From Candidatus Moraniibacteriota bacterium (lineage in GTDB: Bacteria; Patescibacteriota; Minisyncoccia; Moranbacterales; UBA9337), in NCBI GenBank assembly GCA_026985555.1, contig JALSQF010000003.1:62605-126604 (forward strand): DNA of 64,000 nucleotides, read 5' to 3'. The translations under genes and the position numbers were made by a program. Position 1 is the stretch's first letter. Every line of letters begins with the position of its first letter. A model generated the notes under the pieces. The model saw nothing but the letters and a program-made list of their open reading frames with translations. It made no database searches and was not told where the DNA came from. Shown here piece by piece: positions 2,971 through 63,071 of the stretch.

Positions 2971-5013
2971 ATGAAAATTAAAACCAAATTTTCTAGTTCA
3001 AGTATCAGACAAGAATTTTTAGAATTTATGAATAAACGAGGGCATAAGATTGTGCCGTCGGCTTCTTTATTGCCGGAAAATGATCCCACGACACTTTTTA
3101 CCGGATCAGGAATGCAACCAATGGTGCGGTATTTATTAGGAGAAAAATATCCCGGAGGCGTAAAGCGAATAGCCAATGTTCAAAAATGTTTTCGTAGTGG
3201 AGATATTGAAGAAGTGGGAGATAATCGGCATACTACTTTTTTTGAAATGCTAGGCAATTGGTCTTTGGGTGATTATTTTAAACAAGAACAAATTGAGTGG
3301 ATTTTTGAATTTTTAACTAAAAAGTTAGAGCTAGATCCTCAGCGGCTTTATGTTTCCGTTTATCGTGGGAATGAAAAATTAGGTTTGCCAAAAGAAGAGG
3401 AGGCGGTGAAAATTTGGCAAAAACAATTTCAAAAAGTAGAAATTGAAGCGAAAAGCGTTGATTTAATAGATTTAAAACAAAAGGGCGTAGATTTAAAAGG
3501 AAAATGTTTAGTGGATTTAGATAATAGAAATAGAATTTTTTATTATTCCGATTCGGAAAATTGGTGGTCACGAGCGGGAGCGCCACATAAAATGCCGCTG
3601 GGCGAGCCAGGCGGTCCTGACTCAGAAATATTTTGGGATTTTGGTCCAGAACATAAATTTCATGAAAATTCTCCTTGGAAAGATCAACCCTGTCATCCAG
3701 CTTGTGAGTGTGGGCGTTTTATGGAAATTGGTAATAGCGTTTTTATGCAATACAAGAAAACTGAAAATGGATTTGAAGAATTGAAACAAAAAAATATTGA
3801 TTTTGGGGGTGGTTTAGAAAGAATGACAGCAGCTGTTTTAGATAATCCTGATATTTTTTTAACAGATTTGTTTCAACTACCAATGAAAAAGTTAGATGCC
3901 ATTTTATGGTCGCAGAAAAATGCTGAACAAACGCAGAAAAATACAGAAAAAGTGACTGATTATAAAGAATCTTTTTATGTAGGTGATGATGAAAATATCA
4001 AACAATCTTTTAGAGTTATTTTAGATCACATTAAGGGAGCGACTTTTTTAATTAATGATGGATCTTTACCTTCTAATAAAGATCAGGGATATTTTACACG
4101 GAGACTTATTCGGCGAGCGGTAAGATTTGGACATCAATTAGGAATAAAAGAAAACTTTACTAGTCAGATTGCCGAAGAGGTGATTAAAACTTATGAGGAT
4201 TATTACAAAGATCTAGGAGAAAATAGAGATAAAATTTTAGGAGCACTGGAAGAAGAAGAAAAAAAGTTTAGGAAGACTTTAGTTAAAGGTTTAAAGAAAA
4301 TGGAGGCGATATTTGATACAACACCACGAGTTGTTAAAAATAAAGGTGAGGCGATTAGAATTGTAACGGGATATCATGCTTTTGACTTATACCAAACCTA
4401 TGGTTTTCCAATAGAAATGTTTATTGAAGAGTTGGATAAAACAGGAATTGAATATGATATAAAAGAAATTAAAAAATCTTTTCAAGAAGAGTTGCAAAAG
4501 CACAAAGATTTATCACGAACGGCTAGCGCTGGAAAATTTAAGGGAGGTTTAGCAGATAATGATGAAGCAACAACTCAATTACATACTATTACACATTTAA
4601 TGTTAGCTGGTTTGCGTAAAGTATTAGGAGAAGAAGTTAGCCAAAAAGGTTCTAATATTACTCCTGAGAGAATTCGTTTTGATTTTTCTTATAGTCAAGC
4701 GATGACAGAGGAGCAAAGAAAAGCCGTAGAAGATTTTGTCAATAATGCTCTAAAAACTGGTGGAAAAGTAGAAATAGCTGAAATGCCTAAACAACAAGCC
4801 ATAGATGAAGGAGTAACAGGCGCTTTTTGGGAAAAATATCCAGAGCAAGTTAAGGTTTATACCATTACTTCTCCTCAAGGTGAAATTTATTCTCGGGAGC
4901 TTTGTGGTGGTCCACATGTTAAAAATCTTTCAGAAATAAAAGGTACGTTTAAAATTCTCAAAGAAAAATCTAGCGGAGCAGGAATAAGAAGAATTAAAGC
5001 TGTATTAAAATAA
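2971..5013 (+). CDS. alaS: alanyl-tRNA synthetase, short form lacking the C-terminal domain
   Basis: Class II aaRS catalytic core (FTGSGMQ..., FFEMLGNWS) and editing-domain HxxxH (HTITHLM). It is 680 aa against about 870 for the typical enzyme. Confidence 0.8.
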   Translation: MKIKTKFSSSSIRQEFLEFMNKRGHKIVPSASLLPENDPTTLFTGSGMQPMVRYLLGEKYPGGVKRIANVQKCFRSGDIEEVGDNRHTTFFEMLGNWSLGDYFKQEQIEWIFEFLTKKLELDPQRLYVSVYRGNEKLGLPKEEEAVKIWQKQFQKVEIEAKSVDLIDLKQKGVDLKGKCLVDLDNRNRIFYYSDSENWWSRAGAPHKMPLGEPGGPDSEIFWDFGPEHKFHENSPWKDQPCHPACECGRFMEIGNSVFMQYKKTENGFEELKQKNIDFGGGLERMTAAVLDNPDIFLTDLFQLPMKKLDAILWSQKNAEQTQKNTEKVTDYKESFYVGDDENIKQSFRVILDHIKGATFLINDGSLPSNKDQGYFTRRLIRRAVRFGHQLGIKENFTSQIAEEVIKTYEDYYKDLGENRDKILGALEEEEKKFRKTLVKGLKKMEAIFDTTPRVVKNKGEAIRIVTGYHAFDLYQTYGFPIEMFIEELDKTGIEYDIKEIKKSFQEELQKHKDLSRTASAGKFKGGLADNDEATTQLHTITHLMLAGLRKVLGEEVSQKGSNITPERIRFDFSYSQAMTEEQRKAVEDFVNNALKTGGKVEIAEMPKQQAIDEGVTGAFWEKYPEQVKVYTITSPQGEIYSRELCGGPHVKNLSEIKGTFKILKEKSSGAGIRRIKAVLK

Positions 5014-5058
5014 AAACAATAAAAGATATTCAACTTAATAATTATTTAAAACAAAAAT

Positions 5059-6552
5059 ATGAAAACAAAAATTATCATAGGTCTAGGAATTATTGTTTTA
5101 ATCTTATCTGGAATATTTACTTTTAGTATTAGTAAATATTATCAAAACAATATTCAAAACAAACAAGAAGAAATCAAAATTAATAAAAATAATAACAAAA
5201 AAGATGGCAAGCAAGAAACAAATTCTCAATCAGAAGAAATGAAGCAGCAATTAAAAGACGAACAAGCAACGAATAGGGAAAAAGAAATTAATGCAGATAA
5301 AAAAACAGAAATCAAATCTGCTTTGGATAGATTTTTACTTAGTATTTATAATCCTCCCTATGCTTGGCGTTATGGACCTTATCGTGATAAAGATTTTGAT
5401 TATTATCAAAAAGCAGGTTTTGATAATTTTTTATGGGCCAGAGATGAAGCTAAATTAATGGAAAAAATACATAAATATCATTTTAAATATTTTTTGAATG
5501 TTAGAGCGCTATTTCCAGAAGAGGGGCCAGGAAATATTGATTACTTAAGGGGAGTTAAAAATCCTGATGAAGATAATGAAACTTATAATGTTAGACCAGC
5601 AGTGGTGCCAGAGGTTTTATTAAAAAAACTTGATATTTTAGTAGATAAGTATAAAGATGATCCAGATTTAATTGGTTACTGGATTTGTGATGAACCTTTT
5701 CCTTCCGCTTACAAAAATATAGCTAAAGTAATAGAGAGAATTAGACAAAAAGATCCCAAACACTATAGTTTAGTTAATATTGGTGATAATGAATATACTA
5801 CAGAAAAAAATATTGATAAGTTTTTAGAAATAACTAAAGCGAAGGTGCTTTGTTTTGATCGTTATAATTTTTTCAATGGTTTTGATAGAAATAGACAATT
5901 TTTACAACTGCTAGGGATGATTCGTCAAAAAGCTTTAGAATATAACATACCTTTTTATGGTTTTGTGCAGGCCGTTGGTACTAATGGAACTAGCGCTAGT
6001 GAATTAGATTGGCGAACGCCAAATCTCAATGAAATGCGTTGGCTAGCTTATCATATGTTAACTTATGGAGCTAAAGGATTACTTTGGTTTCATTGGGATG
6101 CCGAGGATTGGGGCGTGATACAAAATCCGGCTAGAAATAAGATTTATATAAATTTACAAAAAGTGAATAAAGAAATTAAATCTTTAGGAGATATGATGGC
6201 AAATTTAAAAACAGTAGATGTTTATCAAGTAAAAGGAGAAAAGATTATTGGACAAAGGAAGGAAGGCGATAAGAAATTTATTTATCCAGTAGATAATAAG
6301 ACTAGTTTAACAGTGGGAATGTTCAGTAGAAATGATGGAAAAGAATATTTTATGTTAACAAATACAAGTTATCGCACTTCGGTTAATTCGGAAATAAAAA
6401 TTCTTAAAGCAATTAATGGTTTAGAGGCATTTAACATTGAAACTAAAAAGTGGGAAACAATAAATATAAATGCCAATTCTGATAATACAACTTTCATGCT
6501 AGAATTAGAAAAAGGAAGTGGAAAGTTATTTAGAGAGAAAATGGAATTTTAA
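5059..6552 (+). CDS. membrane-anchored hypothetical protein, possibly a TIM-barrel glycoside hydrolase
   Basis: N-terminal transmembrane helix, Lys/Asn-rich linker, GYWICDEP-type motif. The family is not assigned. Confidence 0.3.
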   Translation: MKTKIIIGLGIIVLILSGIFTFSISKYYQNNIQNKQEEIKINKNNNKKDGKQETNSQSEEMKQQLKDEQATNREKEINADKKTEIKSALDRFLLSIYNPPYAWRYGPYRDKDFDYYQKAGFDNFLWARDEAKLMEKIHKYHFKYFLNVRALFPEEGPGNIDYLRGVKNPDEDNETYNVRPAVVPEVLLKKLDILVDKYKDDPDLIGYWICDEPFPSAYKNIAKVIERIRQKDPKHYSLVNIGDNEYTTEKNIDKFLEITKAKVLCFDRYNFFNGFDRNRQFLQLLGMIRQKALEYNIPFYGFVQAVGTNGTSASELDWRTPNLNEMRWLAYHMLTYGAKGLLWFHWDAEDWGVIQNPARNKIYINLQKVNKEIKSLGDMMANLKTVDVYQVKGEKIIGQRKEGDKKFIYPVDNKTSLTVGMFSRNDGKEYFMLTNTSYRTSVNSEIKILKAINGLEAFNIETKKWETININANSDNTTFMLELEKGSGKLFREKMEF

Positions 6553-9800: not shown

Positions 9801-11855
9801 AGCGCTTTGCAAGGCGAGTATAATGGAAAATCAATTTTATCATATCTTGGCAAAGAGAAAGATCCTCAAATGCCAGCAGGTGTATTTTTAAAATTTTTAG
9901 AAAGTGATATAAATTTAGAGATAAAAGAAGCTGAAAGTATTATTCCTCAAAAAGCGGAAAATATTTTTGAAGAAAGTGGCATTGATCCAGTGGAATTATA
10001 CATTATTGCAGGACAAGGAAATGTTTCCGATGAAGACGTAATTAAAGTATTAAAAGAAAGACGAAAAAATAAGAAAGAAATTAGTTTAAATACAAGAGAA
10101 CTTATTGAAGAACAAATTAAAAAAGAAATTAGAGGACAATCCTCAGAAGAAGGAATTTATGTGAGGGAGATTTTTCAAAATGTTGGGGATGCAGTTTTAA
10201 AACAAAATCCAAATGTTTCTGAAAGAAATCAATTTAATATTTCTATTTGGCAAGAACAAGATACGAAAACAAACCAGTTATTTTTTGTAGAAAAATATGA
10301 AGATCATGGAATTGGTATTTCTTCTTTGGCTACTCTTTTAGTGGCTAAAATAAATAATAAAAAAGATGGAGATGCTGGATATTTCGGCAGTGGTTTTTTG
10401 TCTACTATGGAAGATGGGGATATTTTAGAAATAAAAACATCAACAGGAAATGGAGAAACAAAATATATTCAAATTAAAATTAAAAAAGGAGATGATCAAA
10501 AAGGAGTTGGATTTGATATTACTCAATATAAAAAAATAAATGAATCTTATCAAGGGACAACTATTATTAGAAAAACAGAGATGAATAAAAGCAAAATTAC
10601 GGAACTTGAGTTTGGGTTACTGGAAGCAAATATATTAAAAAACACTGCACTCTGGCAGGTTGATTTAGGCGACGGACAGCATATTGAGACATATCTTAAT
10701 GGCACGAAGATAGAAAAGCAAAGTATTACAAAGCAAGCGGAAACTTTTGAGCTTGATGGACAAGAGTATATGGTTAAACTGGAGCAAGGAAAATTTTCTC
10801 AAGTAGCACACGGAGATGGATTACGAATGAGTAATCTTGAACAGCGGTATTTGGAATTGGTTCCTAAACAAATTCAAGATATTTTTAAGGATTTAAATTT
10901 ATCAATAGTTTTAGATAAAAAGCTTCCTTTAATTAAAGATAGAAGTAGATTAGCTCAAGAGCAAAAATTTTTAAAGAAAATCCAGAAGAGTATTGCTAGA
11001 GCATCTGTTAAAATAGTGGCAAAAGAATTGTTAACTTCTCGGCGTAAGTTTGTTGGGTGGTCGGATGATTATTTCAATAATCCAAATTATCACTTATCCT
11101 ATGATAATCAAGATGGTGAAAGGATTGTAAGGTTAGCTAAACAACTTAATTCAGGAGCTGAATTATCAGATAGTGACTGGCAATGGCTTTCTGATGAAAA
11201 TGATTCAACATCAAAATTAGCTCGTTTAGTTGTTTTAGTAGAAGTGGATTATCAAAAAGAAAAAGTAACCTTGCATAATGAAAGAATAAAGATGTTGCAA
11301 AGAATTCAAGAAGAGATACAAGATAGTAAATTGTTCGCTATTTTACAAAAAGAAAAGGCAAGTTTAGAAAATACTTACACTTCACTATCAAGTAGTAATG
11401 CAAATGTTTATAGTAATATTTTTCCTTCATTTAAGAAGAGCATGATTGTTGCTATGGCAAACTTAGAACAGAGTGAGAATAAGGTTGATGATAATAATTT
11501 AAATCAATCGGAGAAAAAAAGATTAAATTCTTTAAAAGAAATCATTGCTTTACTTTATGGAAATAGGTTAAAAATTGAAGTAATAGAAAATAGCAAAAAA
11601 GCTGGTTATTTTCAAAGAAATCCACTGGGTAAAGATATTTTTGCAATTAATAGAATTATTTTAAATTCTTCCACAAAAAATCTAATAAAAACAGTTGTCC
11701 ATGAGTTAGCTCATTATGAAGAAGGAACCGAAAATCATGGATATAATTTTTCACATCAGGTAAAGGGTGTATTTGGGGATAAATATCGCGAAGTTTGTAA
11801 TTCTTTGTTAGGTTTAATTATTCAAAAGACTCCAATTTTGAAGCAAACTTTATGA
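6834..11855 (+). CDS. giant multidomain protein with two GHKL/Bergerat ATPase-like modules, an internal tandem repeat array and a C-terminal HExxH motif
   Basis: Module 1 has EAVSNALDAM (Hsp90-like N box) and IIDGGVGMDAKTLSTMFVPRAGTKK (G1 box). Module 2 has REIFQNVGDAV, EDHGIGISS and GYFGSGF. The C-terminus has VVHELAHYEEGTENH. Confidence 0.6.
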   Translation: MEQIKFFKKPKNLEAGEELFKLFENKDSIFLDALNKVIQGKDWVDEQKNRVNNFSGSLQDYLKLTEINGVSRVGALKILKGLLKEIRKSKKEAISDVEKKKQIYLPLSYIEKINLSEIDLQEGDLWKAYQEFWNSLPDEEKKFYKFKDEIVISRQSPDAKKQAVVEAVSNALDAMRNVQIGEKGLGIKQLLSYVDDGGEIIIKSKKDGDRARLLNIKKGADNDYYSSIKNIDNFPSTSGTIVSVKLKKELTPERIKEIEKQIKYTFRLTLGAQLILNGEVINNYQKIKNLKGKTASEYESTKIVRVDIKNDKIQIIDGGVGMDAKTLSTMFVPRAGTKKMAIKKDKSFPEVWLLEDEVNQGKVFFSRGNEILEDADLKNSKYLNYSQNGLLLEGPNFRVPESRQGIFLDETFLNTINKIVTEILNSNKLAQEKAQLLNSILIYLDEQMQKKNLGDKQKNKEQNSEILTHIKKIKKQAQPLIQELQQEYILLPNHQKWQNLDLDNSKSNKELFYLNERLFDFKIESIPGVERAEYFRGAKVYGVDFKELDLKDNKFIEYRGSYLFDKRVLQIYEQETDDFKKESLEELIELSLNPIITSYDEKEIHILRKILIKKQSVKKNNKEKQREQVETIQNSVLSDLFLKEYKELNKKMGTCHEVTYLENGLFGLRFEKGFVLLDKNSQEKMSIDNMGACYEVTQLENGLIGLGFEHGFVLLDQNSQEKMRIDDMGNCFWLTSLENGLIGLGFEHGFVLLDQNSQEKMRIDDMGNCFWLTSLENGLIGLRFEDGFQTLDYYHFSQKIIGQVNENELVVQIKNIINSLDDSLIDKTDIEEILISRVRNKLKEIEKNEQDFEGINNLLSKPEQLSQVFSYLQKKEQQFQEYQISTYLRNTILSLMTDPKTTEQLFSKLEDNSLQVEMVLSIQKFKLLENNIEEFSNLLKDIDNLYERNFFYSIVDKYLNNIDKSKQDIGLLLDKLSRIKQASIFTTFKSALQGEYNGKSILSYLGKEKDPQMPAGVFLKFLESDINLEIKEAESIIPQKAENIFEESGIDPVELYIIAGQGNVSDEDVIKVLKERRKNKKEISLNTRELIEEQIKKEIRGQSSEEGIYVREIFQNVGDAVLKQNPNVSERNQFNISIWQEQDTKTNQLFFVEKYEDHGIGISSLATLLVAKINNKKDGDAGYFGSGFLSTMEDGDILEIKTSTGNGETKYIQIKIKKGDDQKGVGFDITQYKKINESYQGTTIIRKTEMNKSKITELEFGLLEANILKNTALWQVDLGDGQHIETYLNGTKIEKQSITKQAETFELDGQEYMVKLEQGKFSQVAHGDGLRMSNLEQRYLELVPKQIQDIFKDLNLSIVLDKKLPLIKDRSRLAQEQKFLKKIQKSIARASVKIVAKELLTSRRKFVGWSDDYFNNPNYHLSYDNQDGERIVRLAKQLNSGAELSDSDWQWLSDENDSTSKLARLVVLVEVDYQKEKVTLHNERIKMLQRIQEEIQDSKLFAILQKEKASLENTYTSLSSSNANVYSNIFPSFKKSMIVAMANLEQSENKVDDNNLNQSEKKRLNSLKEIIALLYGNRLKIEVIENSKKAGYFQRNPLGKDIFAINRIILNSSTKNLIKTVVHELAHYEEGTENHGYNFSHQVKGVFGDKYREVCNSLLGLIIQKTPILKQTL
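8787..9230 (+). repeat. tandem 114-bp (38-aa) coding repeats, about 3.8 copies
   Basis: Units start at 8787, 8901, 9015 and 9129. Units 3 and 4 are identical over about 90 nt. Each encodes MGxC..LENGLIGLGFEHGFVLLDQNSQEKM. Confidence 0.9.
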
Positions 11856-46086: not shown

Positions 46087-46113
46087 TTGCGGATCTTTTT
46101 TTAAACTAAAGAA
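46087..46113 (+). terminator. intrinsic-terminator-like hairpin plus T7 tract in the nusA leader (possible attenuator)
   Basis: aagattcg-tgattg-cggatctt stem-loop followed by ttttttt, about 45 nt before the nusA ATG. Confidence 0.45.
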
Positions 46114-46158
46114 AATTTTTTAATAAAAGTAAACACTATAAATATTAATTTTAAAAAT

Positions 46159-47367
46159 ATGTCGCAAAAAGTAAAAAAAGAAAAAGGATTAAACAGCGAG
46201 GAATTTCTCAGCGCTATTGATCAACTTTGTGAAGAAAAGGGATTGTCTAAAGAAAAAGTAATGGAAACAGTAGAAGCTGCTTTAGCAGCTGCTTATAAGA
46301 AAGATTATGGAAAAAAAGGGCAACACATTAGAGCTAAATTTGATTTAGTAACAGGAGGAACAGAATTTTATTTAGTGAAAGAAGTAGTTGATGAAACTAC
46401 GCGAGAAATGTCTTCGTTGGAAAATAATAAAGATAAAAATATCAACCAAAAAAAAGATAAATCTAAAAGTAATGAAACCAAATTAAATCGTTTTAATCCA
46501 GAAAGAGATATTCTTTTAGAAGAAGCACGGAAAATAAAAAAAGATGTTAAAGTCGGTGATACCATTGAAACTAAATTAGAAGCCAAGAGTAATTATGGAC
46601 GTATAGCTGCTCAAACAGCTAAACAGGTTATTATTCAAAGAATAAGAGAAGCAGAAAGAAATGCGATGTATGAAGAATATAAAGAAAAAGAAGGAGAAGT
46701 AATAAGCGGAACAGTGCAAAGAGTAGAAGGAAGTAATGTCTATATTGATTTAGGAAAATCAACTGGCGTATTACTTCCTAGTGAACAAATTCCGAGAGAG
46801 AATTATAGGATAGGACAAAGAATAAAGGTTTATCTAGCTAAAGTGGAAGTGGACACAAAAGGTCCTGGTGTTATCTTAAGTCGTAATCATCCTGAAATGC
46901 TTAGAAAACTTTTTGAACTAGAAGTTCCAGAGATATTTGCAGGAACGGTAGAAATAAAAGCAGTAGCTAGGGAAGCGGGAGAAAGGAGTAAAATTGCTGT
47001 AGAAGCTAAAGAGGAAGGAGTTGATCCGATTGGCTCTTGTGTTGGGCAAAAAGGAACAAGAGTGCAAACAATTATTGATGAATTAAATGGAGAAAAAATA
47101 GATATTATAGAATGGGATAAAGATCCAGCTAAATTTATTGCGTCTTCTTTAAGTCCCGCTAAAGTTTTGGCAGTAGATTTAGATGAAAAAAATAAGCATG
47201 CTATTGTTAAGGTCCCAGAAGATCAACTTTCGTTAGCTATTGGAAAACGAGGGCAAAATGTAAGATTAGCAGCTAAATTAACTGATTGGAAAATTGATGT
47301 GGAAGGGGCTAATTTAATTCAGGAAGAAGAACAAGAAAAGAAAAAAAAACCAAAGATGAAAATATAA
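46159..47367 (+). CDS. nusA: transcription termination/antitermination factor NusA
   Basis: S1 domain (ISGTVQRVEGSNVYIDLG) and two KH domains (GSCVGQKGTRVQ; AIGKRGQNVRLA). Confidence 0.9.
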   Translation: MSQKVKKEKGLNSEEFLSAIDQLCEEKGLSKEKVMETVEAALAAAYKKDYGKKGQHIRAKFDLVTGGTEFYLVKEVVDETTREMSSLENNKDKNINQKKDKSKSNETKLNRFNPERDILLEEARKIKKDVKVGDTIETKLEAKSNYGRIAAQTAKQVIIQRIREAERNAMYEEYKEKEGEVISGTVQRVEGSNVYIDLGKSTGVLLPSEQIPRENYRIGQRIKVYLAKVEVDTKGPGVILSRNHPEMLRKLFELEVPEIFAGTVEIKAVAREAGERSKIAVEAKEEGVDPIGSCVGQKGTRVQTIIDELNGEKIDIIEWDKDPAKFIASSLSPAKVLAVDLDEKNKHAIVKVPEDQLSLAIGKRGQNVRLAAKLTDWKIDVEGANLIQEEEQEKKKKPKMKI

Positions 47368-47465
47368 ACAAGGGAGAAGAATTAAAAAGTGAAGTTACCA
47401 ATAAAGAAGAAAAAGTAAAAAAAGAAGAAAAATAATTTAATAAATAAACTAGAAAAATCAATTAT

Positions 47466-48752
47466 ATGAAATTAAAAAAATTACCCCACTCTCAAGTAGA
47501 AATAAATTTAAGTATTCCTTGGGAAAAATGGAAAAAGTTTTTTCAAGAAACTATCAATAATTTTTCCCGAGAGATTAAAGTAGAAGGATTTCGTCCAGGA
47601 AAAGTTCCTCGTGAAATTATAGAACAAAAAGTAGGATTAGAAACCATACTTAATCAATCAGCGGAAAAAGCTATCCAAAATGATTATGCTCAAGTTATTC
47701 AAAAAGAAAAAATTGAAGCCATAGGTGCTCCACAGGTAGAATTATTGAAATTAGCCGAAGGAAATGATTTAGAGTATAAAATTATTACAGCCGTTATGCC
47801 AGAAGTTGAATTAAAAGATTGGGAAAGTGAAGTAAAAAGAATTAATAAAAAGTATGTAGATACAAAAATAGATATTAAGAAAGATAGAATAGATCAGGAA
47901 TTGAAAAAACTAGCTGAAAGTAGAGTAAAGTTAGTAGCCGTTAATCGTGAAGCACGATCAGGAGACAGTGTGCAAATTGATTTTGATGTTTTACAAAATG
48001 GTGTGATTATTGAAAATGGTTCTAGTAAAAATCACAATTTAATTCTAGGCAGAGGAGTTTTTATTCCTGGATTTGAAGAAAAAATAATAGGAATGAAAGC
48101 AGAGGAAGAAAAAGAATTTGAATTAAAATTTCCAGAAAATTATCATGCTAAAAATTTAGCAGGAAAGAAAGCTCAATTTAGAGTGAAAATGAAGGCTGTG
48201 CAAAAAAGAGAAACTCCTTCTATTGATGATAATTTTGCTACTAGTTTAGGTAAATTTAAAAACTTACAAGAACTAAAAGAGAGCTTAAAAGAAGGTTTAA
48301 CAGAAGAAGAAAAGATTAAAATTAAAAACAAACAAAGGGAAGAAATTTTAGATGCTATTATTGAAAAAATGAAAGTAGATTTACCTCAAATTTTATTAGA
48401 TGAAGAATTACACAAAATGACACACGAATTTGAAGATCAACTACAAAGATCGGGTTTAAATTTAGATGATTATTTAAAACAAATAAATAAGAAAAAAGAA
48501 GATTTGCAAAAAGGATGGAAGCCACAAGCTGAAAAAAGAATAAAATCATCTTTAGCTCTAGATTATTTAGCTAAACTAAAAGAAATTAAAGTTCCTTCTG
48601 GTGAAATTGAAGCGGAAATGAATAAAGTTTTACAACAATATAGAGGAGTTAAAGATTTGGAAAAAAATATTGATATGAAAAGATTATATGAATATGTAAA
48701 AGCCACTTTACAAAACGAAAAGATTTTACAAATATTGGAAAAAATGGAATAA
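47466..48752 (+). CDS. tig: trigger factor
   Basis: N-terminal ribosome-binding region and FKBP-like middle domain. Conserved tig-clpP synteny. Confidence 0.8.
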   Translation: MKLKKLPHSQVEINLSIPWEKWKKFFQETINNFSREIKVEGFRPGKVPREIIEQKVGLETILNQSAEKAIQNDYAQVIQKEKIEAIGAPQVELLKLAEGNDLEYKIITAVMPEVELKDWESEVKRINKKYVDTKIDIKKDRIDQELKKLAESRVKLVAVNREARSGDSVQIDFDVLQNGVIIENGSSKNHNLILGRGVFIPGFEEKIIGMKAEEEKEFELKFPENYHAKNLAGKKAQFRVKMKAVQKRETPSIDDNFATSLGKFKNLQELKESLKEGLTEEEKIKIKNKQREEILDAIIEKMKVDLPQILLDEELHKMTHEFEDQLQRSGLNLDDYLKQINKKKEDLQKGWKPQAEKRIKSSLALDYLAKLKEIKVPSGEIEAEMNKVLQQYRGVKDLEKNIDMKRLYEYVKATLQNEKILQILEKME

Positions 48753-48785
48753 TTTTTTAGTTTAATTATTTAATTTAATTAGCAT

Positions 48786-49382
48786 ATGAAAAAAGATATA
48801 AATAATCAATTATTAATTCCTACTGTTATTGAAAAAACTAACTATGGAGAAAGAGCTTATGATATTTATTCGCGTCTTCTTAAAGATAGAATAATTTTTA
48901 TTGGCACTCCTATTGAAGATGTTTTAGCTAACGCAGTAATTGCTCAATTATTATTTTTGGAATCACAAAACAATAAGGAGGATATAAAAATTTATATTAA
49001 TTCTCCTGGTGGTGTAGTTACTTCTGCTCTAGCTATTTATGATACAATGCAATATGTTAAACCAGATGTGCAAACTATTTGTATAGGAATGGCTGCTTCC
49101 GCTGCTTCTCTTCTTTTAGCGGCAGGCGCCAAGGGAAAAAGAATGATTTTACCTAATGGAGAAGTAATGATTCATCAAGTTATGGGAGGAGCACAAGGAC
49201 AAGCTACAGATGTGGATATTCATGCTAAACATATTTTAAGAACCAAGGAAAGATTAAATAAGATATTAGCAAAACATACTAAACAAAGATTAAGTAAAAT
49301 AGAAAAAGATACAGATAGAGATTATTTTATGAGTGCGGAAGAAGCAAAAAAATATGGGATTGTAGATAAGATTATAAAATAA
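48786..49382 (+). CDS. clpP: ATP-dependent Clp protease proteolytic subunit
   Basis: GMAASAAS active-site serine region and the His/Asp triad context. Confidence 0.9.
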
Positions 49383-49394
49383 TTTTTAGAAAAT

Positions 49395-49446
49395 GCTTCT
49401 GGCTATTTAAATATCCATTTAAATGGATATTTAAATAGCCAGAAGC
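49395..49446. repeat. 48-bp palindrome copy 5 (52 bp with its extended arms)
   Basis: Identical core; lies between clpP and the 23S leader. Confidence 0.95.
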
Positions 49447-49519
49447 TAATAAACTTTTTCTTTTTAAGAAATAGAATATAAAAAATTATTAGGAATTTAA
49501 TTTAAATATCTTTCAACTC

Positions 49520-49547
49520 TTGACAAAAAAAATAAATTTGTTATTCT
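49520..49547 (+). promoter_or_regulatory. candidate rRNA promoter TTGACA-N16-TATTCT
   Basis: Consensus -35 with a plausible -10; about 440 nt upstream of 23S. Confidence 0.35.
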
Positions 49548-49986
49548 GATGAGGCTTGCAAAAATAATTATTTTTTTAATTTAACTAATTGAAAAAACAA
49601 TCTATATCAAAAAATAATAAGCAAAAATATAAACGGTATTTCAATCTAATTTCATTTAAATCTATTTAATAGAAATAAAAAATGAAATAGAAATTAGTTG
49701 AATTCCGTTATGGCGGAGTTTTTTATTTGAAAATTAATTAAAAAGTTTGTGAAGAAATTGATATTTTAGATTATTAAAATATAAACTGAACTTAAAATCT
49801 AAAGTATTAATTTCCGCATAAATGAGTAAATTAAAAACAAAATAGAAAAGATGGTTTTATAGAAAGGAAATTATTTTTAAGCGGAAAAATAGTTTCTGAA
49901 ATAAAACCAAAATAAAGTAGGTAAGTAATTTTATTGAGTCAAAAATTAGTTAAGTTATTTTTAACTACTAATTTTGAAAGTAAAAA

Positions 49987-53056
<3,070 letters not shown>

Positions 53057-53181
53057 TTACTTTCATTTCATTGTAGCAATTACGCTAGCGTTTGTTACAA
53101 TGATTAGTAGTTAAAAGTAACTTAATGTAGTTATTTTAAATAATTTTGCAGATACCAACTGAAACTAGATGATATTATTTT

Positions 53182-53294
53182 GGTGGTTTTAGCGAGAGGG
53201 GTACACCTGTTCCCATACCGAACACAGTAGTTAAGCCTCTTAGCGCCGATGATATTGAGACTTAAAAGTCTTGAGAAAGTAGGTCGCCGCCAAA
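53182..53294 (+). rRNA. rrf: 5S ribosomal RNA
   Basis: CCTGTTCCCATACCGAACACAG...GCGCCGATG...GTAGG are conserved. Confidence 0.85.
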
Positions 53295-53317
53295 ATAATG
53301 TCATCTAGTTTTTTTAT

Positions 53318-53351
53318 TAAAAAATCAATATTTGTAAATATTGATTTTTTA
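53318..53351 (+). terminator. AT-rich palindromic hairpin plus T-run after 5S
   Basis: aaaaaatcaatattt-gt-aaatattgatttttt. Confidence 0.45.
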
Positions 53352-53413
53352 ATAAATTTTAGTTATGCTATTAAAGTGTTGAAATAATAATAGTATAAAT
53401 TACTAGGAAAAAA

Positions 53414-53500
53414 GGAGAGGTGCCTGAGTGGTTGAAAGGGGCACCCTGCTAAGGTGTTGTACCTTCACAGGTACCGAGGGTTCGAATCCCTCCCTCTCCG
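53414..53500 (+). tRNA. tRNA-Ser (anticodon GCT), class II with long variable arm
   Basis: Acceptor GGAGAGG/CCTCTCC, anticodon loop CTGCTAA, long variable arm, T-loop TTCGAAT. Confidence 0.9.
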
Positions 53501-53593
53501 CAAATTTGCAATTTTTGCATTTTTGGCTGAATTTGGAGCGGAGCAAAGCTCCTCTGAGGCCGCGCTTTGCGCGAAAAGGGCTGAATTTACAAG

Positions 53594-55233
53594 GATTTGC
53601 CACGCTCCGCGTGGTCAAAAAGAAATGTTTTGGTTTTGAATTTGGAAGTTCGAACCAATCTTTTTTAGAAAATCTCGAATCCCTTCGGGATTTTCTTTGG
53701 AAGCGATAATTTTGGCTTGTTTACTGTCTTTTATAAATTTCTCGGCGAGTTCGAACCGATTATCGCTTTTTTGCTCAAAAGACTTCAATTTGTCTTTCAA
53801 AACTTGTTTTTGATTGATGAGTTTGTTTTTCGCTTTCTGATATTCTTTGATGTTCAAAACACTTTCCAGATAAGCGTTCATCAGCTTTTTCAGTTTCTCG
53901 TCAATTTTTGCGATTTCTTGTTTTATCTTTTGAGCAAAAAAGTTTGATGATTGCGCCTTTACTTTTCTTTCTTTTTCAATCTCTTTCAACATCCAATCGG
54001 CGCAATCATCAGACAAAGAAACTTTTTGTATTGCTTCGTTGATTTGAGATGAAATTTTTTCTTCTCTCGTAAATACATTTTGCGTGCATTTATGGTTTGG
54101 GTTTTTCCTTGTGCAATAGTAGTAAATATATTCCTTACCGCTTTTCTTGATTTTCTTGTCCGCCGTGATTGAATATCCGCACTCTCCGCACTTGAAAATT
54201 CCCCGATAAAGAAAAAATTTCATCTTGTCCGCTTTTTACGGTTTGGACTTTCTTTTCATCACTTCTTGCACTTGGTCAAAAAGTTTCTTTGTGATAATCG
54301 GTTCGTGCTTTCCTTCGTAAAATTCGCCATTGTAGCGGATTAGTCCGTAATAGAAAGGATTTTGCAATAAATACTGATAATTGGAAACGGAAAGCATTTT
54401 TCCTCGCCGCCCGCGCAAGCCAAGCTCGTTGATAATCTTTCGGAGTTCTCTCAATGTGTATTTGCCTGTCGCGTAGGCCTCAAATGCCTTTTTTATGAGA
54501 GGGGCTTTTTCTTTATCCAAATAAATCATTTTTGTTTTCTTGTCGTTCAAATATCCCAAAGGGGCCATTTGAGGCCATAAACCTTGCTTTAACTTTTGGC
54601 GGTGTCCTCTTTTGATATTCTCCGAAAGATTATCAACATAATATTTTGACTGCCCAAAAGCGATGGAAAGCATAAATTTTCCTTGAGGAGTTGGGTCAAA
54701 CCAGAAAGTCGGGAATTTTAGCTCTTTGATAACGCCAATATCAACAAGATAAATAATTTGCCCGCCGTCAACGCTGTTTCTTGCCAGTCTGTCGGGGTGC
54801 CACGCTAAAATTCCCGTTGCTTCGCCCGCTTCCATTCGCTTTAACATATCGGCAAACATCGGTCGCCCGGGCTTTTTGGCGGTTTGTTTTTCTACGATAA
54901 TATCAACAATTTCCAAATTTTCTTTTTTCGCCAACTCTTTCAATTCCGCTATTTGGTCGGCAATGTTTCGCACTTGCCGATCTTCCGAATCGGTAGACTT
55001 GCGGGCGTAAATGAAAAACTTTCTGGTTTGATTTTTTGCTTTATTGTCTTTATTGTCTTTGCTCATATTTTTGGCAGTCAAAATATTAAAAAATTATTGC
55101 TTCCAAGTTTCGTCAAAGGCGAAACGAAAAAAGATTGGTTGGCAAAACTTCGTTTGCTTTGGGTTTTACCCAAACGAACTTCCAACTCCAACACCAAAAC
55201 ATTTCTTTTTGCCCGCGCGGAGCGTGGCAAATC
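53594..55233. mobile_element. serine-recombinase element bounded by imperfect inverted repeats (IR-L 53594-53666; IR-R 55127-55233)
   Basis: The reverse complement of 55127-55233 aligns with 53594-53666 at about 85% identity, apart from a 34-bp hairpin insertion at 55141-55174. The shared core is gatttgccacgctccgcg. Confidence 0.6.
53615..55081 (-). pseudogene. large serine recombinase interrupted by one in-frame TAA (fragments 54236-55081 and 53615-54223)
   Basis: The N-terminal fragment has the YARKST catalytic serine motif and resolvase domain. The C-terminal fragment has the zinc ribbon CGECG...YYYC and a coiled coil. Both fragments are in the same frame, separated by TAA plus four codons. 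Confidence 0.7.
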
Positions 55234-55691
55234 GCCCTAAAATGGGGTTTTGGCGCGCGTAGCGCGCCTGCCGAGCGGCTTTGCCGCGAGGCAATATCTT
55301 CCCAAAATGACAAAATCGTAAATTGGCGGTACTGTTTGGACGAAATTCTAACCTTTTTTGAGCAAAATCCAGAGGATTTTGAGGATTGAATCCCGCCCAG
55401 CGTTTCCGCCCGCCTCCGCTTCGCTGCGGCGACAGGCAAAACAGAAAATTTTTCTTTTCCTTAATTGAAAAAAATTTGGGCGTGTGAGTAAAAAATGTTT
55501 AGAAAAATTGTGCGAGAAAAAAATAAAAAAGTAGAGAATAAAAGAGAAATTAAAAACAAATAAAAAATTGTACTGAATTTTAATTTTCTACTAAAAATAT
55601 AAATTATAAATAGTAATAGATATGTATATAATAATTTAAAATATATGAGAATAATTTTTTTTAGAAGTAAAAATGTATCCTAAAATAGGTA

Positions 55692-62405: not shown

Positions 62406-63071
62406 ATGAAAAAAATTTTTCTTATTATTCCAGTTTATAATGAAAGCAAGGTACTGAAAGAAACATTAGAAGAAATTAAGCAATATGGATATGATAAAAT
62501 TATAGTAGTGGATGATGGAAGTTCAGATGATAGTTTTGATATAGCCAGAAAAGAGTGTTTAGCTTTAAAACTGGAAATTAATAGAGGAAAGGGAGCGGCT
62601 GTAAAAACGGGAATAGAAGCGGCTAAAAAATTAGGAGCAGATGTGGTTGTAACATTAGATGGAGATGGGCAACATAATCCTAAAGATATTAAGAAAATGT
62701 TACAATTAATAAATGATAAATATGATGTTGTTTTAGGGAGTAGATTAAAAAATCCTCAAGGAATGCCTTGGTATAAAATTATGCATAATCAAATAGGTAA
62801 TTTTTTTACTTGGATAATTTATGGATTATGGGTTAGCGATAGTCAATCCGGATTTAGAGCTTATTCTAGGAAAGCTATTGATTTAATAGATACCAAAACT
62901 GATCGTTATGAATATGATAGTGAAATAATTAGAGAGATTAAAAAACATAAACTAAGCTATACAGAAATTCCCATTGAAGTTCGTTATACACAATATTCTA
63001 TGAATAAGAAAAATAAACAAAATTTTATTAACGGCATAAAAACGTTAATTAAAATGTTAATTTATAGTTAA
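62406..63071 (+). CDS. family 2 glycosyltransferase (dolichyl/polyprenyl-phosphate sugar synthase-like)
   Basis: VDDGSSDDS and DGDGQH motifs. Confidence 0.75.
   Translation: MKKIFLIIPVYNESKVLKETLEEIKQYGYDKIIVVDDGSSDDSFDIARKECLALKLEINRGKGAAVKTGIEAAKKLGADVVVTLDGDGQHNPKDIKKMLQLINDKYDVVLGSRLKNPQGMPWYKIMHNQIGNFFTWIIYGLWVSDSQSGFRAYSRKAIDLIDTKTDRYEYDSEIIREIKKHKLSYTEIPIEVRYTQYSMNKKNKQNFINGIKTLIKMLIYS

Follow-up and report, generated by a model that had tools for sequence, protein, structure and literature searches.

Related systems and the element family

Serine integrases, the large serine recombinases (LSRs) of phage type, are heavily used tools of genome engineering; in nature, they usually target protein-coding genes. 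Here, we describe an LSR gene that is enclosed by long inverted repeats and lies directly beside tRNA-Ser in a 64-kb stretch of DNA (hereafter the window; positions 62,605 to 126,604 of contig JALSQF010000003.1) from a Candidatus Moraniibacteriota bacterium. We read the segment at 53498-55509 of the window as a degenerate, cargo-less relic of an integrative element that is mobilized by its LSR and targets the extreme 3'-end of tRNA genes, here that of tRNA-Ser; we give this reading a probability of about three in four. Serine integrases have been stated not to be known to target tRNA genes, 14 of 297 being unproven cases (Mageeney et al., 2020; PMC7192596). A full-text literature search returned no description of such an element; the family to which it belongs is apparently undescribed, and comes mostly from metagenome-assembled genomes (MAGs) labelled Patescibacteria (candidate phyla radiation, CPR).

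The phage-type LSRs (A118/LI, phiC31, Bxb1, SPbeta) share with this family the Resolvase, Recombinase and Zn-ribbon domains, the latter with a coiled coil, as well as a short core common to the attachment (att) sites, a 5-bp motif shift between attB and attP, and an integrase gene placed beside att. The family differs from them, however, in targeting the last ~25 nt of a tRNA gene, in forming islands of 2-12 kb with restriction-modification or toxin-antitoxin cargo rather than prophages, and in having a putative attP that overlaps the 3'-end of the integrase open reading frame (ORF), with a second, inverted attP-type copy upstream of the gene. Tyrosine-integrase islands at tRNA genes (P4-like islands; phage mv4 at the 3'-end of tRNA-Ser) likewise insert at a tRNA 3'-end, leave the tRNA intact, and have the integrase gene beside the tRNA and a small accessory cargo. 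Their enzymes, however, belong to another family, and the elements described here have no long direct repeat of the 3'-part of the tRNA, share a core of ~4-6 nt, and carry a mimic of the tRNA end that is inverted, not direct.

Homologues were drawn from the best 120 clusters (65-95% identity) of 7908 protein-search hits; about 60 loci were fetched (designated by L numbers), 48 of which are genome loci. The few homologues with a named source and most loci from genome collections are labelled Patescibacteria/CPR; a phage origin was rejected, as only three close relatives were found in IMG/VR. The search for homologous recombinase and repeat elements that had been proposed in an earlier note on this DNA, made from the sequence alone, was thus productive, with at least 120 homologue clusters and about 60 loci of the same anatomy. 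We refer to the repeat at the 3'-end of the gene as the tail arm (T), to its inverted copy upstream of the gene as the upstream arm (T'), and to the T'-recombinase-T unit as the cassette; a slash denotes a junction. In essentially every one of the genome loci whose contig reaches far enough, the 3'-end of the gene adjoins the 3'-end of a convergent tRNA. The target in the close clade is tRNA-Ser, with four common anticodons, and in a clade at ~60% identity it is tRNA-Gln, -Lys, -Arg or -Trp; the outer arm ends overlap tRNA 3'-ends by 3-6 nt in all loci. Arm pairs measured at 49 loci have a median length of 143 nt (range 135-212 nt) and a median identity of 97.4%, and arms are also present in the deep clade, which has no nucleotide similarity to the window (186-212 nt, 95-99%). 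In all close relatives, the region upstream of the arm consists, from inner to outer, of a module that we term M, then block c, block b, and block a with an inverted a'. The ORFs of the best 120 homologues end in antisense tRNA (..WRRGRDSNPR) in 60 cases and in module M (..WRCLLDEIRTFFEQNP) in 20. Because the ORFs extend through the arm into tRNA or M, the annotated C-terminus is set by the DNA junction that the gene currently faces; gene callers run most homologue ORFs (e.g., P0002, P0004 and P0006) 30-90 codons through the arm in this way.

The earlier note had considered an integrative element with the recombinase as its only cargo. This holds for the window, but not for the relatives, in which a cargo of small restriction-modification, toxin-antitoxin or other defence-type genes is usual. 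In L019, L028, L042, L048 and L144, a cargo of 2-4.6 kb is enclosed by a further inverted pair, that of the M modules (165-237 nt, 95-100% identity), and in L022 these modules form a cargo-less palindrome; L144 is a complete island of 3.6 kb, whose distal M/host junction lies near position 334. Evolution of the arms is concerted: of 1721 positions, 19 distinguish L141 from L142, 13 of them in the outer half of T, and yet the two arms of L141 are 100% identical to each other. The genes of these two loci (P0076 and P0075, respectively) were considered as a flip pair and rejected on account of their different arm alleles.

Breakpoint and attachment-site geometry

The position at which the elements recombine can be read from two loci of different samples, L143 and L144, which are 100% identical over 3330 nt comprising the cargo, the M/T' junction, the promoter, the gene and T. 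The two split immediately past ..CAAATTGGCGG, where L144 continues into tRNA-Ser and host DNA, and L143 into an M-type module. Because they diverge exactly there, the natural breakpoint is at the outer arm end (GGCGG, or CCGCC on the other strand), within or beside CCGC(C)A; in tRNA-Ser, this motif is the acceptor end, with the discriminator G and (C)CA. It had previously been suggested that a quasi-palindromic core, gatttgCCACGCtccGCGTGG (53595-53615, with a copy at 55213-55233), is an att site. This core does not coincide with the breakpoint, and sister clades have a different palindrome; it marks the boundary between the conserved inner and the variable outer halves of the arms.

We collected 29 distinct M-containing sites, 25 of the M/T type (attP-type) and four of the M/host type (attR-type; L013, L019, L022 and L144). 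M carries a T-loop-like motif, GTTCGRAY, which starts 24 nt (or 21 or 23) from the arm end at the M junction, whereas next to the tRNA this distance is 19 nt (or 16 or 18). In all 16 loci in which both junctions could be measured, involving tRNA-Ser, -Gln, -Lys and -Arg, the spacing at M is longer by 5 nt; the pattern is swapped in L057, in which the cassette is flipped. In serine integrases, the motif bound by the zinc-ribbon domain (ZD) lies 5 bp nearer the centre in attB than in attP, and attB is ~10 bp shorter (Rutherford et al., 2013; PMC3783163). Since the +5 spacing matches this rule, the tRNA 3'-end would be the B half-site, M the P half-site and T the P' half-site. M/T would then correspond to attP, tRNA/T to attL and M/host to attR and, by analogy, the T-loop-like motif would be the one bound by the ZD.

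The breakpoint also bears on the possibility that the cassette, of 1.85 kb, is itself an autonomous mobile unit similar to an insertion sequence (IS), which inserts between a tRNA 3'-end and an M-like site. The recombinase is the sole gene of the element in the window, many homologues are found on contigs of 1.8-2.1 kb, and the geometry, in which identical arms face inward and are flanked by a tRNA end and its inverted mimic, is that expected of an insertion by a serine recombinase. However, L143 and L144 share cargo, M and cassette at 100% and differ only past T, so that cargo and M belonged to the unit that exchanged partners. Moreover, the M, c, b and a blocks always accompany the cassette, and assembly breaks at repeats account for the short contigs (L060 and L142). 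A tRNA/M junction lacking the cassette occurs in none of 241 million metagenome records, a weak negative as an exact pattern was used, and no tRNA/M, T/T' or M/M' junction is present in the 60 fetched loci. A self-mobile cassette is, on this evidence, distinctly improbable. Described mobile units in which a serine recombinase is the sole or main gene (IS607, and Tn4451 and Tn5397 with TnpX and TndX) also differ from the family: IS607 enzymes are small, have an N-terminal MerR-like helix-turn-helix (HTH) and no terminal inverted repeats, the sites of TnpX and TndX are GA-centred and loosely specific, and neither group targets tRNA ends or has 150-nt arms.

Several relatives depart from the common arrangement. 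The upstream arm is missing from L013, a contig of 706 kb, where directly oriented M-c-b-a (5908-6021) runs in frame into the recombinase at FFIYA; block a resembles the recombinase 5' codons NQTRKFF, and the arrangement has the look of a deletion between these two direct repeats. In L049, an ORF of 176 amino acids with the peptide YHIVWGTKYRRKYL lies between the upstream arm and the recombinase (4780-5310), and bears, by eye, a resemblance to an IS200/IS605-type transposase; its host is a complete chromosome (OY969557.1) with three copies of the family, at tRNA-Lys, tRNA-Arg and a non-tRNA site. The tails of L029, L047 and L048, in the deep clade, adjoin sequence that is not called as tRNA by ARAGORN (e.g., ..CACGGGTACTTAACCCGACTAGC followed by CCGCAA), and which could represent degenerate tRNA ends or other targets. 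L002 and L056 have 100% identical recombinases and the same 9.3-kb cargo (HTH, PLD-SNF2 helicase, MmeI-like methyltransferase and AAA_13) in opposite orientations; this cargo is bounded by 56-nt inverted repeats (2113-2168 and 11499-11554; 89% identity) that are not sites of the M/T type, and over six samples it is found four times one way and twice the other. At the far end of the cargo of L056 (11551-11700), 39 nt of the tail arm are joined to block b, next to a full tRNA-Ser; the site resembles an attL-type site that is older or truncated, which suggests that elements have accumulated at one tRNA.

The copy in the window

In the window, tRNA-Ser(GCT) (53414-53501, + strand) is intact, as judged by ARAGORN and an Rfam match of 59 bits. 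Its T-loop, TTCGAAT, is at 53481-53487 and is followed, 10 nt on, by CCGCAA (53498-53503), the attL-type junction of the tRNA 3'-end with the tail arm; the crossover region would lie here, to judge from the breakpoint in L143 and L144. The left arm starts within the last bases of the tRNA, and the 94-bp spacer that the earlier note had placed between tRNA-Ser and the insertion does not exist. The GC content is 33-48% (mean ~40%) from 53502 to about 55509, against 15-29% in the flanks and 30% in the window as a whole; from its raised GC, the element is foreign DNA.

The two arms had been noted before, at 53594-53666 and 55127-55233; the repeat is real, but its span is larger, 53498-53666 and 55127-55329. 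A repeat search aligned 53498-53652 with 55175-55329 over 155 nt without gaps (74% identity), and the pair continues as 53653-53666 and 55127-55140 on the far side of a 34-nt insert in the right arm. Local alignment gave the inverted repeat a score of 115, as compared with 16.5 +/- 2.1 in shuffled sequences (z = 47), which settles the earlier concern that the alignment might not stand out from shuffled sequence. The tail arm (53498-53666, - strand) consists of the last ~17 codons of the recombinase (53615-53666) and a hairpin-rich tail, and would act as a P'-type half-site. The upstream arm (55127-55329, + strand) includes a 34-nt hairpin (55141-55174), which is not an insertion private to the right copy, as had been assumed, but is constant in the upstream arm of the relatives. 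The + strand of T' still codes for the C-terminal tail of the homologues (..NISFCPRGAWQIALKWGFGARSAPAERLCREAISSQNDKIVNWR), and T' is therefore an inverted duplicate of the 3'-end of the gene and the DNA that follows. No Rfam match was found in the arms, even at a permissive threshold.

Outside T', an internal attP-type junction is formed by TGGCGG (55324-55329, + strand) and module M (55330-55353), which mimics a tRNA 3'-end in inverted orientation; its ATTCTAACC (55345-55353; GGTTAGAAT in reverse complement) is 15 nt away from the junction. There follow, on the + strand, the conserved leader blocks c (55354-55372) and b (55373-55409), block a (55433-55455), which resembles NQTRKFF, the recombinase 5' codons, and an inverted, degenerate block a' (about 55474-55509), the element ending near 55509. 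Part of block b, 55373-55390, had been regarded as a degenerate tRNA-like att remnant; it is identical in L001 and L018, and the true mimic of the tRNA 3'-end is the inverted one in M. No second M or T module and no distal M/host (attR-type) site is found elsewhere in the 64-kb window, and hence the element has lost its distal att site and any cargo.

The arms of the window are of mixed descent. Their inner parts are 95-96% identical to those of relatives; the right outer arm matches the arms of L001 and L040 at 96.7% identity, whereas the left one reaches only 79-83% with its best match (L009 and L024), its hairpins still being perfect. Compared with each other, the two arms are identical at 54 of 59 positions in the inner part and at 57 of 96 (59%) in the outer part, the outer 92 nt of T stemming from another arm lineage than the right arm. 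By sequence comparison, the element is a chimera of two arm lineages. As both lineages have intact hairpins, the low identity between the arms was rejected as a measure of age.

The LSR gene (55066 to 53615, - strand) has 483 codons. The product has an N-terminal Resolvase domain (PF00239, E = 1.1e-19), with a catalytic Ser motif, FFIYARKSTDSEDRQ, that is kept in all aligned homologues, followed by Recombinase (PF07508, E = 1.7e-18) and Zn_ribbon_recom (PF13408, E = 1.6e-11) domains; its best match in the PDB is the C-terminal domain of the A118 serine integrase (4kis, E = 5e-9). Upstream, a 5'-untranslated region (UTR) with a promoter-like region and a hairpin, cgtttcgcc..ggcgaaac (55067-55126, - strand), is conserved in relatives. 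The frame is interrupted by a TAA (54236-54238, codon 277) in the linker between the Recombinase and Zn-ribbon domains, after which KADK and then MKFF follow in the same frame. At this position, eight homologues have CAG or CAA; among 13 aligned homologues the position is a sense residue or a gap, with Gln in 11 and a stop in none. A second stop, TGA (53615-53617, codon 484), stands where homologues have TCG, TGC or TTG, and the frame is open beyond it. The host uses the standard genetic code (code 11), with an ORF coverage of 83% and TAA ending 36 of 44 long ORFs; an alternative code was thereby ruled out as the explanation of the in-frame TAA. Since TAA and TGA occur where homologues have sense codons, in a host with the standard code, the gene is, from its sequence, a recently inactivated pseudogene with two point lesions and no frameshift, whose product is otherwise 95% identical to intact relatives. 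The split by an in-frame TAA and the recent inactivation are thus as previously described, on the strength of the domains, the CAA and CAG codons of homologues and the code of the host; that the TAA is the only stop is not, given the TGA at codon 484.

Could the LSR nevertheless be functional, by readthrough or recoding of the TAA, or as a cooperating pair of polypeptides that result from a split in the linker joining the recombinase domain and the ZD? The stop falls exactly within the inter-domain linker, an ATG follows four codons past it, and the remaining protein has kept its high identity to intact homologues. Yet TAA is a regular terminator in this host, the position is Gln in most of the aligned homologues and a stop in none, the second stop cuts the tail short, and the element has no distal att site; we consider a functional LSR highly improbable. 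With two nonsense codons, no attR-type end and arms of mixed lineage, the copy in the window is, as its sequence indicates, a degenerate, cargo-less relic that cannot act alone.

The neighbourhood of the element consists of nusA, tig and clpP, which directly precede the 23S and 5S rRNA genes (49981-53061 and 53179-53295), with tRNA-Ser after them (46105-53501). There is no 16S gene in the window, and from this the rRNA operon appears to be unlinked; the 23S match is 3081 nt long, compared with a model length of 2925 nt, and the trigger factor closest to that of the window in metagenomes is only 55% identical. Between the 5S and tRNA-Ser genes, a perfect 21-nt hairpin (53313-53356; tttattaaaaaatcaatattt and aaatattgattttttaataaa) is probably an rRNA operon terminator or a processing stem.

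Orientation, folding and proposed mechanism

In the window and in about 30 other loci, the cassette is convergent with the tRNA; in L057 (tRNA-Ser(+)/T'..integrase(+)..T/M) and in L027 (tRNA-Gln) it is co-oriented with it. Both orientations are seen across genomes, not within one population. The suggestion in the earlier note of an invertible segment that carries its own recombinase therefore finds support at the level of the family, but the likeness to Hin does not extend to the type of enzyme or the size of the sites. In a Hin-like phase switch, the recombinase would invert the arm-bounded segment so as to switch the expression of neighbouring genes, and Hin, Gin, Cin and Pin do have in common with the family a recombinase gene inside a segment bounded by inverted repeats and found in both orientations. 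The cassette occurs in both orientations relative to both the tRNA and M (L057 and L027), the arms are 95-100% identical within an element and diverge between elements, and the recombinase, once flipped, points the same way as downstream cargo, e.g., HTH and methyltransferase genes. On the other hand, those systems employ small serine invertases that have an HTH at the C-terminus, and they rely on 26-bp sites and a Fis-dependent enhancer, whereas here the Recombinase and Zn-ribbon domains identify the enzyme as an LSR and the arms measure 135-212 nt. Furthermore, one flank is always a tRNA 3'-end, and at the breakpoint one flank, tRNA or M, is exchanged for the other, as in integration; the copy in the window has a dead gene, lacks adjacent cargo that could be switched and is only 59% identical between its outer arm halves. 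A phase switch is thus unlikely, somewhat less so than a self-mobile cassette. A partial parallel to the integrative element that we favour is the FLP/FRT system of the 2-micron plasmid, in which two identical inverted regions also split the element, both relative orientations occur and the repeats are kept identical; as it involves a tyrosine recombinase, a eukaryotic plasmid and copy-number amplification, this is an analogy only.

The coding sequence of the recombinase (53752-55088, including the start region) holds nine further inverted repeats, perfect or nearly so, of 13-21 nt with 41-528 nt between their arms and all mutually nested: H1 (53752-64/54293-305), H2 (53766-82/53926-42), H3 (53944-57/53999-54012), H4 (54013-28/54277-92), H5 (54047-63/54209-25), H6 (54428-45/54620-37), H7 (54639-59/55068-88), which pairs the 5'-UTR and start region with codons ~137-143, H8 (54696-709/55018-31) and H9 (54710-22/54804-16). 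They recur with compensating changes in L001, L016 and L056, and are absent from the gene of L028, in the deep (~60%) clade. In an alignment of 25 sequences, 90.6% of the cells pair, compared with 39-53% when the partners are slid by 1-3 columns, a percentage that is inflated because the structure was derived from one of the aligned sequences; changes on both sides, which are less affected by this, occur in 28 pairs, compared with 6-13 in the slid controls, and in 500 shuffles these values were never attained. With 80 G-U and 117 A-C pairs, there is no excess of G-U, and the complementarity is therefore Watson-Crick and strand-symmetric; an RNA-level structure is not favoured on this count, and H1-H9 look like a feature of the DNA rather than an mRNA fold. 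When folded with DNA parameters, the genes lie 9-12 standard deviations below codon-shuffled controls, in contrast to L028 (z = -1.8). Together with the arms, H1-H9 are such that the whole cassette could fold as a single strand.

How might an intact element work? In the relatives, the functional attP would be T, the 3'-tail of the integrase gene (P' arm), joined to M (P arm), and it would recombine with the tRNA 3'-end (B arm) within or beside the shared CCGC(C)A, in which the crossover dinucleotide presumably lies. The products would be tRNA/T, beside the integrase gene, and M/host, at the far end of the cargo, giving the integrated order host/M' .. cargo .. M/T' - promoter - integrase - T/tRNA. 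Every element has, in addition, an internal attP-type site (M/T') that lies inverted just upstream of the integrase promoter, and this internal site accounts for the long inverted repeats around the gene. The excised circle would then have two inverted attP sites, and the two orientations of the cassette could arise either by arm-to-arm inversion or by integration through either attP.

Several points weigh against the integrative element as proposed. No serine integrase is known to recombine attP with attL, which makes homologous recombination between the arms a serious candidate for the flipping of the cassette. Contigs often break at the arms, but assembly by itself would lead to such breaks, and they are no proof of inversion. 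No recombination directionality factor was identified in the family, a further difference from the phage-type LSRs, and the host flank, which would be the B' half of attB, is not conserved, as is unusual for serine integrases. L143 is not the excised circle of L144, the M module of the former being unlike the distal M of the latter. Finally, a metagenome scan for an empty tRNA-Ser site, using the trigger factor, gave only relatives of at most 55% identity, none with a 23S, 5S or tRNA-Ser gene nearby.

In its most far-reaching form, the interpretation would be that of a new class of serine-integrase elements, mainly in MAGs labelled Patescibacteria (CPR), in which the universal T-loop of tRNAs is read as the ZD motif, tRNA 3'-ends thereby serving as attB, two attP sites lie inverted to each other and allow the integrase and cargo modules to be reshuffled or flipped, and the cassette, with its arms and nine internal helices, is built to fold as single-stranded DNA, a hint at a single-stranded stage, e.g., uptake by natural competence; this we put forward tentatively, as a possibility that we ourselves hold to be rather doubtful. 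A large family of tRNA-targeting LSRs would offer attB sites that are present in almost any bacterium, within the most conserved 25 nt, and its att logic would be readable from the sequence, the T-loop being the ZD motif and the acceptor end the specificity determinant, which changes across the Ser, Gln, Lys and Arg clades; the copy in the window, a fossil, is itself of no such use. The mobile elements of Patescibacteria (CPR) are poorly known, and the family appears to be a main vehicle of small defence and restriction-modification islands in the MAGs that bear this label. Its constant inverted internal attP, the concerted evolution of its arms and the network of DNA helices within its gene could reveal a new mode of control or transmission of LSR elements.

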